Assembly: GCF_003334385.1 (NCBI RefSeq)
Contig: NZ_QOWN01000007.1
Origin: Escherichia coli
GTDB lineage: Bacteria; Pseudomonadota; Gammaproteobacteria; Enterobacterales; Enterobacteriaceae
Length of the DNA stretch: 64,000 nt
Strand: one strand, 5' to 3'
Shown: in pieces, positions 43,402-43,773 of the stretch
How the letters are laid out: every line of letters begins with the position of its first letter
How positions within the stretch are numbered: the stretch's first letter is position 1
Position numbers and translations under genes: made by a program
Notes under the pieces: model-generated
Told to the model about the DNA's origin: nothing
The model's input: only the letters and a program-made list of their open reading frames with translations
Databases searched by the model: none

Positions 43402-43476
43402 TTAATTTATTCCATATTACTTCAGAGCATGCTGTGAAATAAGCGGCTCTCAGTTTGATTAATAGAGGTATTAATG

Positions 43477-43515
43477 CACGCTACCGCCCCTGGCTTTACA
43501 GCTACCAGAGCACTG
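43477..43515 (-). promoter_or_regulatory. JUMPstart element with ops (RfaH-dependent antitermination site) upstream of O-antigen cluster
   Basis: Reverse complement reads CAGTGCTCTGGTAGCTGTAAAGCCAGGGGCGGTAGCGTG; ops GGCGGTAGCGTG at 43477-43488. Confidence 0.85.
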
Positions 43516-43773
43516 CATGCATGCCTACGATGTGACGAGCGTTACCCACTCGCGCTTAACCCGAAAAATTCAAACGCTAATTGTCTTACCAATCCGCCCT
43601 GGAAACAAGGAAAATCCTGGAAAACTTTGACTAAAATCCTATTGCTAACTCGTTGTTATTCTGATTGTTTATATAAAACAACGGCAGGAATATTCGCAAC
43701 AAATTACTTTCGCCACGAATCTTCACTGCCGTTATAATTTTCTTATCAACCGTTACATTCGGTCAGATTTTCA

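Follow-up and report, generated by a model that had tools for sequence, protein, structure and literature searches.

The window analyzed here, a stretch of Escherichia coli chromosomal DNA 64,000 nucleotides in length, carries the gene order his, wzzB, ugd, gnd, O-antigen cluster, galF and colanic-acid genes, the genes so listed being on the minus strand. It is collinear with strain 1500, to which it is 98.4% identical and whose wzx and wzy genes are annotated as belonging to the O48 family; the term O48-type is used below on the basis of that RefSeq annotation, as an NCBIfam search of the wzx and wzy genes of the window assigned neither to a family. The O-antigen transcription unit (Table 1) opens with rmlB, and the first strong intrinsic minus-strand terminator that the terminator scan detected after the promoter is located at 31013-31039, just past gnd and approximately 12.4 kb from rmlB. 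GC content falls from 52 to 57% in the flanking core genes to 43 to 46% in the rml genes and to 29 to 32% across 33 to 40 kb, where glycosyltransferase, wzx and wzy genes are found. The unit is thus a long, AT-rich operon which is free of strong internal intrinsic terminators up to the end of gnd, as expected of the RfaH class, and it is the kind of target on which polymerase would otherwise be blocked by H-NS and Rho. The rfaH gene itself is expected elsewhere in the E. coli genome, outside the 64-kb window.

Table 1. Features of the galF-rmlB region and of the O-antigen transcription unit (positions refer to the window)
Feature	Position	Strand	Basis or detail
galF, conserved gene upstream of the O-antigen cluster	43774..44667	-	NCBIfam TIGR01105, 689 bits vs cut-off 659
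Hairpin (43678-43735) with U-rich tail (43669-43677), 3' of the galF stop codon	43669..43735	-	Folding, conservation
Candidate sigma-70 promoter of the O-antigen operon	43580..43608	-	-35 TTGTTT (43603-43608), 17-nt spacer, -10 GACAAT (43580-43585)
Untranslated O-antigen leader (predicted)	43402..43574	-	5' end deduced from promoter footprint
JUMPstart element, 39 bp	43477..43515	-	RF01707, 60 bits vs 35
JUMPstart stem-loop	43490..43508	-	CUGGU (43504-43508), 9-nt loop, GCCAG (43490-43494); Rfam structure line, leader centroid fold
ops, GGCGGTAGCGTG, non-template strand	43477..43488	-	Exact, unique in window; expected pause U11 = 43478
rmlB (rfbB), dTDP-glucose 4,6-dehydratase, first operon gene	42316..43401	-	NF007490, 798 bits vs cut-off 649; GTG start
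Downstream transcription unit: rmlBDAC, three glycosyltransferases, wzx, glycosyltransferase, wzy, galE, gnd	31013..43401	-	ORF layout

The spacer between the galF stop codon and the GTG start codon of rmlB comprises exactly 372 bp (43402-43773). The galF start given in Table 1 was set according to the 894-nt annotated orthologue of strain 1500, the program-made open reading frame beginning 12 nt earlier at a GTG codon. Within this spacer, the minus strand from 43515 to 43477 reads CAGTGCTCTGGTAGCTGTAAAGCCAGGGGCGGTAGCGTG, the 39-bp JUMPstart sequence described by Hobbs and Reeves (1994) and represented in Rfam by RF01707. The RF01707 model is matched over its full length (model positions 1 to 38 of 38) with a score of 60.0 bits against a gathering score of 35 (E = 5.8e-13 in the local search and 2.6e-11 across the whole window), and this is the sole JUMPstart match anywhere in the window. 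The last 12 bases of the element are the exact ops sequence, which occurs once in the 64 kb; with one mismatch tolerated, two matches are present against 0.24 expected from shuffled sequence. From the last ops base (43477), 75 nt lead to the rmlB start codon, the element being located 5' of rmlB on the strand shared with the whole O-antigen cluster. The original prediction of a 39-bp JUMPstart sequence carrying ops on the minus strand, approximately 75 bp before rmlB, is thus borne out in each particular.

The assignment of this element to the RfaH-responsive ops class, which had likewise been claimed, withstands closer inspection. Individual ops bases have been ascribed distinct roles, in that RfaH binding requires C3 to G8 and pausing requires T11 and G12 (Zuber et al., 2018, PMC5995543); GGCGGTAGnnTG is found on the non-template strand, which is the rmlB coding strand, with C3 to G8, T11 and G12 all intact, and the spacer in which it is positioned is untranslated and precedes the O-antigen genes. 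The JUMPstart/ops element of this locus is therefore confirmed as a real, textbook example of an already known class. As such, it is a reliable landmark which adds nothing new to biology. A DNA fold of the ops 12-mer produced a weak hairpin in a register which differs from the published C3:G8 pair and was regarded as uninformative. Elsewhere in the window, the ops-like sequence GGCGGTAGCGTT is present on the coding strand near the end of a 335-amino-acid open reading frame (2839-2850, plus strand), and the ops 8-mer GGCGGTAG is present on the coding strand within wcaI (55470-55477, minus strand). Both of these internal sites are probably nonfunctional, as ops-like sites located within open reading frames of strain CFT073 bind no RfaH (PMC9765446).

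Within the species, the exact 39-mer is present in at least 2,179 of 5,426 complete E. coli genomes, as a rule once per genome, while the 372-bp spacer finds a match in 4,030 of these genomes, in 2,908 of which at least 80% of its length is covered. Where such alignments end is informative. Of the alignments obtained with a spread sample of 40 E. coli genomes, nine end at query positions 296 to 298, the ops element itself ending at 297, whereas those from strains in which rmlB is also the first gene continue to the start codon. Similarly, homology to the O6 locus of CFT073 ends 1 nt past ops, and in loci with different first genes the similarity stops abruptly after JUMPstart. Because alignments to other serogroups break off at ops or 1 nt beyond it, the 3' terminus of this motif separates the conserved flank from exchangeable DNA, a dual role which arises because the element is conserved while the genes that follow it are swapped between strains. 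This agrees with the earlier suggestion that the element helps to define the upstream boundary of the serotype-specific cluster. The rmlBDAC genes situated just downstream of ops are common to many O types, and in this strain the low-GC, serotype-specific genes begin only at approximately 39.9 kb. A boundary marked to the base is of use in the design of serotyping primers and in tracing recombination.

To place the spacer in a broader context, the window was aligned with the corresponding region of 14 other enterobacterial species (Escherichia whittamii, Salmonella enterica arizonae, five Citrobacter, three Enterobacter, Lelliottia, Pseudocitrobacter, Cedecea and Silvania), and three conserved blocks emerged, corresponding to a terminator, a promoter and JUMPstart. 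The first of these, located 3' of the galF stop codon, folds with a free energy of -29.9 kcal/mol (z = -6.45), a value matched by none of 200 shuffles. The base of its stem, ACGGCAG/CUGCCGU, and the adjoining T-run are retained in the 15 aligned enterobacterial genera/species while the stem interior varies, with compensatory changes at 7 of 12 consensus pairs. The structure was recovered by folding and consensus folding, having been missed by the terminator scan because its 58-nt imperfect stem lies outside the limits of that scan. It is probable that this hairpin represents the intrinsic terminator of galF, by which the O-antigen promoter would be shielded from upstream transcription. A subthreshold Rfam match to MIR8001 (22.9 bits against 90) corresponds to the same galF hairpin and does not denote a microRNA.

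The second block, TTTCCTTGTTTC...GGTAAGACAATTAGCGTTTGA, is the sole conserved block between the terminator and JUMPstart. It is kept across 13 to 15 of the aligned enterobacterial genera/species, its invariant or near-invariant columns coincide with both hexamers of the candidate promoter, and it is positioned approximately 90 nt upstream of ops. The hexamers are weak, with three of six (-35) and four of six (-10) matches to consensus. A sigma-70 consensus scan of the spacer returned no convincing minus-strand promoter upstream of JUMPstart, TTGTTT/GACAAT being missed because the scan demands at least four of six matches in each hexamer. The minus-strand matches which the scan did return (43796-43767 and 43895-43868) overlap the end of galF, and its best match (43710-43738, plus strand) falls inside the terminator hairpin; these candidates were rejected. 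Between ops and rmlB, the same scan detected no promoter-like site. On the basis of the footprint, transcription of the O-antigen operon would start near 43571-43575, giving a predicted leader of approximately 170 nt. For O7, a leader of 173 nt was reportedly described by Marolda and Valvano in 1998; it would map to approximately 43574, which fits the conserved promoter.

Published 5' ends on orthologous DNA, which is 96 to 100% identical to the window, bear on the same point. In CFT073, RNA-seq boundaries place the 5' end of the O-antigen transcription unit 67 nt before ops (Hustmyer et al., 2022, PMC9765446, Data set S2A), a position which corresponds to approximately 43555 in the window because CFT073 aligns without gaps from galF to 1 nt past ops; a sigma-70 ChIP peak is also located upstream of ops in that strain (PMC9765446). 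In K-12, Kim et al. (2012) reported a 5' end, represented by eight reads, 317 nt upstream of rfbB. This end maps to 43718, which is inside the hairpin of the terminator, and lacks a fitting -10 element at a sensible distance; we therefore doubt that it marks the main promoter and read it as a weak or processed end. The three orthologous 5' ends (approximately 43555, 43718 and the O7 end at approximately 43574) disagree in detail, yet every one of them is upstream of ops. Since the conserved promoter is located approximately 90 nt upstream of ops, the latter should be transcribed into the leader, that is, it should fall within the transcribed, untranslated segment which extends from the promoter to the first start codon. 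A start downstream of ops, which would have told against the original prediction, is indirectly contradicted by the footprint, by the CFT073 and K-12 5' ends and by the lack of a promoter-like site in the scanned segment downstream of ops. The 176-nt leader fold is no more stable than its shuffles (z = -0.26), and thermodynamics thus lend no support to a specially structured leader. At the rmlB start (43399-43412, minus strand), the GTG codon is preceded, 9 nt upstream, by a weak GGA, both of which are kept in other genera; the generalization that RfaH-controlled leaders lack a Shine-Dalgarno sequence is, therefore, only partly true at rmlB.

Considered together, these observations make it very probable that the E. 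coli O-antigen (rfb/wb*) operon begins with a leader encoded in this spacer, in which RfaH is loaded at ops. The analysis shows that the element is present, on which strand and at which position it lies, that it is conserved, to which family it belongs and that it is identical to tested DNA, whereas the start site and the RfaH dependence in this strain are inferred. Transcription of galF would end at the conserved hairpin just past its stop codon, and the weak sigma-70 promoter TTGTTT-17-GACAAT would, as its conservation suggests, fire approximately 170 nt upstream of rmlB. RNA polymerase is then predicted to cross JUMPstart and to pause at U11 of ops (43478), where the non-template GGCGGTAG would form a small hairpin recognized by RfaH, as published for the same 12-mer. 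That hairpin presents G4 to A7, upon which RfaH opens and binds polymerase for the rest of the operon, its refolded KOW domain recruiting the ribosome (PMC5995543, PMC11001881, PMC2871177); structures of ops-paused complexes have also been reported (PMC11001881). At this locus, RfaH would remain on polymerase, excluding NusG and suppressing pausing and Rho-dependent termination, and may help to bring the ribosome to the weakly signalled GTG of rmlB, as is known for the family. Polymerase would thereby traverse the approximately 12 kb of AT-rich, H-NS-prone O-antigen genes. From the element, expression of the O48-type cluster is predicted to depend on RfaH, and the 5' end at which the O-antigen transcription unit begins is fixed as well.

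Among known systems, a close counterpart is the rfb leader of K-12, which shares the location after galF and matches the window at 100% in the 39-bp element and in the 75-nt segment leading to the GTG codon. Over the entire 372-bp spacer, identity is approximately 96.5%, the few substitutions being located upstream of JUMPstart and including one in the region of the galF terminator hairpin. The downstream serotype genes differ, having an O48-type layout here and being those of O16 in K-12. The sequence from JUMPstart to the rmlB start is 100% identical to that of K-12, and a fragment bearing the ops site upstream of K-12 rfbB served as the ops+ insert in a lux reporter that responds to RfaH (Belogurov et al., 2010, PMC2871177).

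A second comparison is offered by the RfaH regulon of CFT073, whose leaders (wzx/O6, kps, hly and rfaQ) carry the same GGCGGTAGCGTG in the 5' leader. The O6 leader shares the galF-proximal promoter region and is homologous to the window up to ops, and, like the operon described here, the O6 operon is long, AT-rich and, in CFT073, bound by H-NS. The two loci differ in their first gene, which is wzx in CFT073 (71 nt after the start of ops) and rmlB here, with divergence setting in 1 nt past ops. In CFT073, the RfaH ChIP peak spans the O-antigen leader to wzzB, and the RNA polymerase travelling ratio falls to approximately 0.34 of the wild-type value when rfaH is absent (PMC9765446).

To assess the wider distribution of ops, exact matches to GCCAGGGGCGGTAGCGTG were sought with each species represented by one genome, and at least 120 stretches were returned. 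Among the matches listed, nearly all belong to Enterobacterales, whose genomes often carry two to four copies, and the genes that come first after ops include rmlB, wza-type exporters, rfaQ, kpsM-like transporters, wbaP and wecA. A second class of ops site, also among the matches listed, is devoid of the JUMPstart hairpin and precedes ClpV/TssH-like genes. In this class (ten of the loci), a conserved upstream ACCTTATGGGCATCGGTTAACG replaces the hairpin; the genes that follow encode ClpV/TssH-like type VI secretion ATPases, and the hosts are Pantoea, Erwinia, Enterobacter and related genera. Such sites possess an identical GCCAGGGGCGGTAGCGTG core, but they lack the CUGGU arm and the stem-loop, and they precede secretion rather than polysaccharide genes; in CFT073, tssH is an RfaH target with an ops site (PMC9765446). 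Three further loci (L057, L063 and L121) carry an E. coli-like JUMPstart on short or low-coverage contigs labelled as Arthrobacter sp., an Erysipelotrichia metagenome-assembled genome and a Peptococcaceae metagenome-assembled genome. L057 and L121 also bear the preceding E. coli leader sequence; all three probably reflect contamination or misbinning in public assemblies.

The conservation data also bear on two explanations in which regulation by RfaH would be of little or no importance. The sharp end of homology to O6 CFT073 and the nine alignments in the 40-genome sample which end at or beside the last ops base might suggest that the element is kept chiefly as a recombination anchor for the exchange of O-antigen clusters, its regulatory role in this strain being minor. 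We consider this very unlikely, as the exact 12-mer is also kept across genera and before unrelated polysaccharide, core-LPS and capsule operons elsewhere, while the RfaH dependence of the homologous CFT073 operon has been shown experimentally (PMC9765446); the abruptness of the junction more plausibly follows from selection on ops. That the element is a chance match or a decayed relic without function is hardly credible, even though 8-nt ops cores do occur inside open reading frames at 2839 (plus strand) and 55470 (minus strand). The full-length Rfam match has an E value of 5.8e-13, the sequence is exact in thousands of E. coli genomes and is found at the same position in the 15 aligned enterobacterial genera/species, and every functionally critical ops base is intact. 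The conservation data thus refute a chance or relic origin.

A greater, if still low, probability is assigned to the proposal that JUMPstart acts mainly as RNA, beside or instead of the DNA-level ops signal, either through a functional stem-loop (a pause hairpin in the exit channel, an anti-backtracking device or a ribosome-loading platform) or through short leader transcripts resembling RirA. Rfam models JUMPstart as an RNA stem-loop (Weinberg, 2010, PMC2864571), and in 96 of 118 distinct relatives among the matches listed a 5' arm of the form CTGGT, TTGGT, TTGGC or CTGGC, located 7 to 10 nt upstream, retains the ability to pair with GCCAG. As the search pattern fixed the 3' arm, variation was visible on one side alone, in the form of C/U transitions opposite G, which amounts to weak covariation. 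Between the end of the stem and the U11 pause downstream of it, the distance is 12 nt, which is the spacing of hairpin-stabilized pauses, but the ops pause has been described as biochemically distinct from pauses of that type, and the 12-nt ops sequence alone recruits RfaH in defined systems (PMC11001881, PMC5995543). Furthermore, the ops sites before ClpV/TssH-like genes dispense with the hairpin, and the whole leader folds no better than shuffled sequence. Loading of RfaH at the DNA-level ops signal remains the preferred reading of this leader.

It is nevertheless conceivable, albeit improbable, that the stem-loop is more than a passenger: as its 3' end (43490) is 12 nt upstream of U11 (43478), the hairpin might sit at the RNA exit channel during the pause. 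The structural and biochemical studies of RfaH cited here used ops alone and do not address the hairpin (PMC5995543, PMC11001881). With regard to short transcripts, RfaH is bound by RirA, a 73-nt product of the waaQ leader in which both JUMPstart and ops are present (PMC5736990). As in the window, these elements are located in the 5' part of an LPS operon transcript; JUMPstart is close to the 5' end in RirA, whereas it is expected approximately 60 nt after the predicted start here, and no short RNA is known for the rfb leader. Prematurely ended rfb leader transcripts which titrate RfaH as RirA-like RNAs represent a further, though improbable, alternative.

Several other features of the window merit description. 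Downstream of the RfaH-controlled unit, the usual ugd-wzzB arrangement is broken between 27909 and 29628 by an IS200-family transposase open reading frame (29037-29546), its STnc490 RNA motif (29505-29628) and, on the strand opposite to that of the transposase, an NAD-dependent epimerase gene (27909-28913). Between wcaK and wzxC (48805-49281), a 96-bp REP/BIME-like unit is repeated in tandem 4.9 times, with four Rfam naRNA4/CssrE matches; the array measures approximately 477 bp, compared with approximately 293 bp in strain 1500, which is otherwise 98% identical. Within the colanic-acid cluster, the cpsB-cpsG spacer harbors an Rfam algC RNA motif (53613-53662, minus strand; 78 bits against 33.8) immediately 5' of the cpsG start. 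The his operon leader (19206-19329, plus strand; Rfam, 132 bits) and an STnc240 sRNA motif (16392-16466, minus strand) are present as expected for the region.
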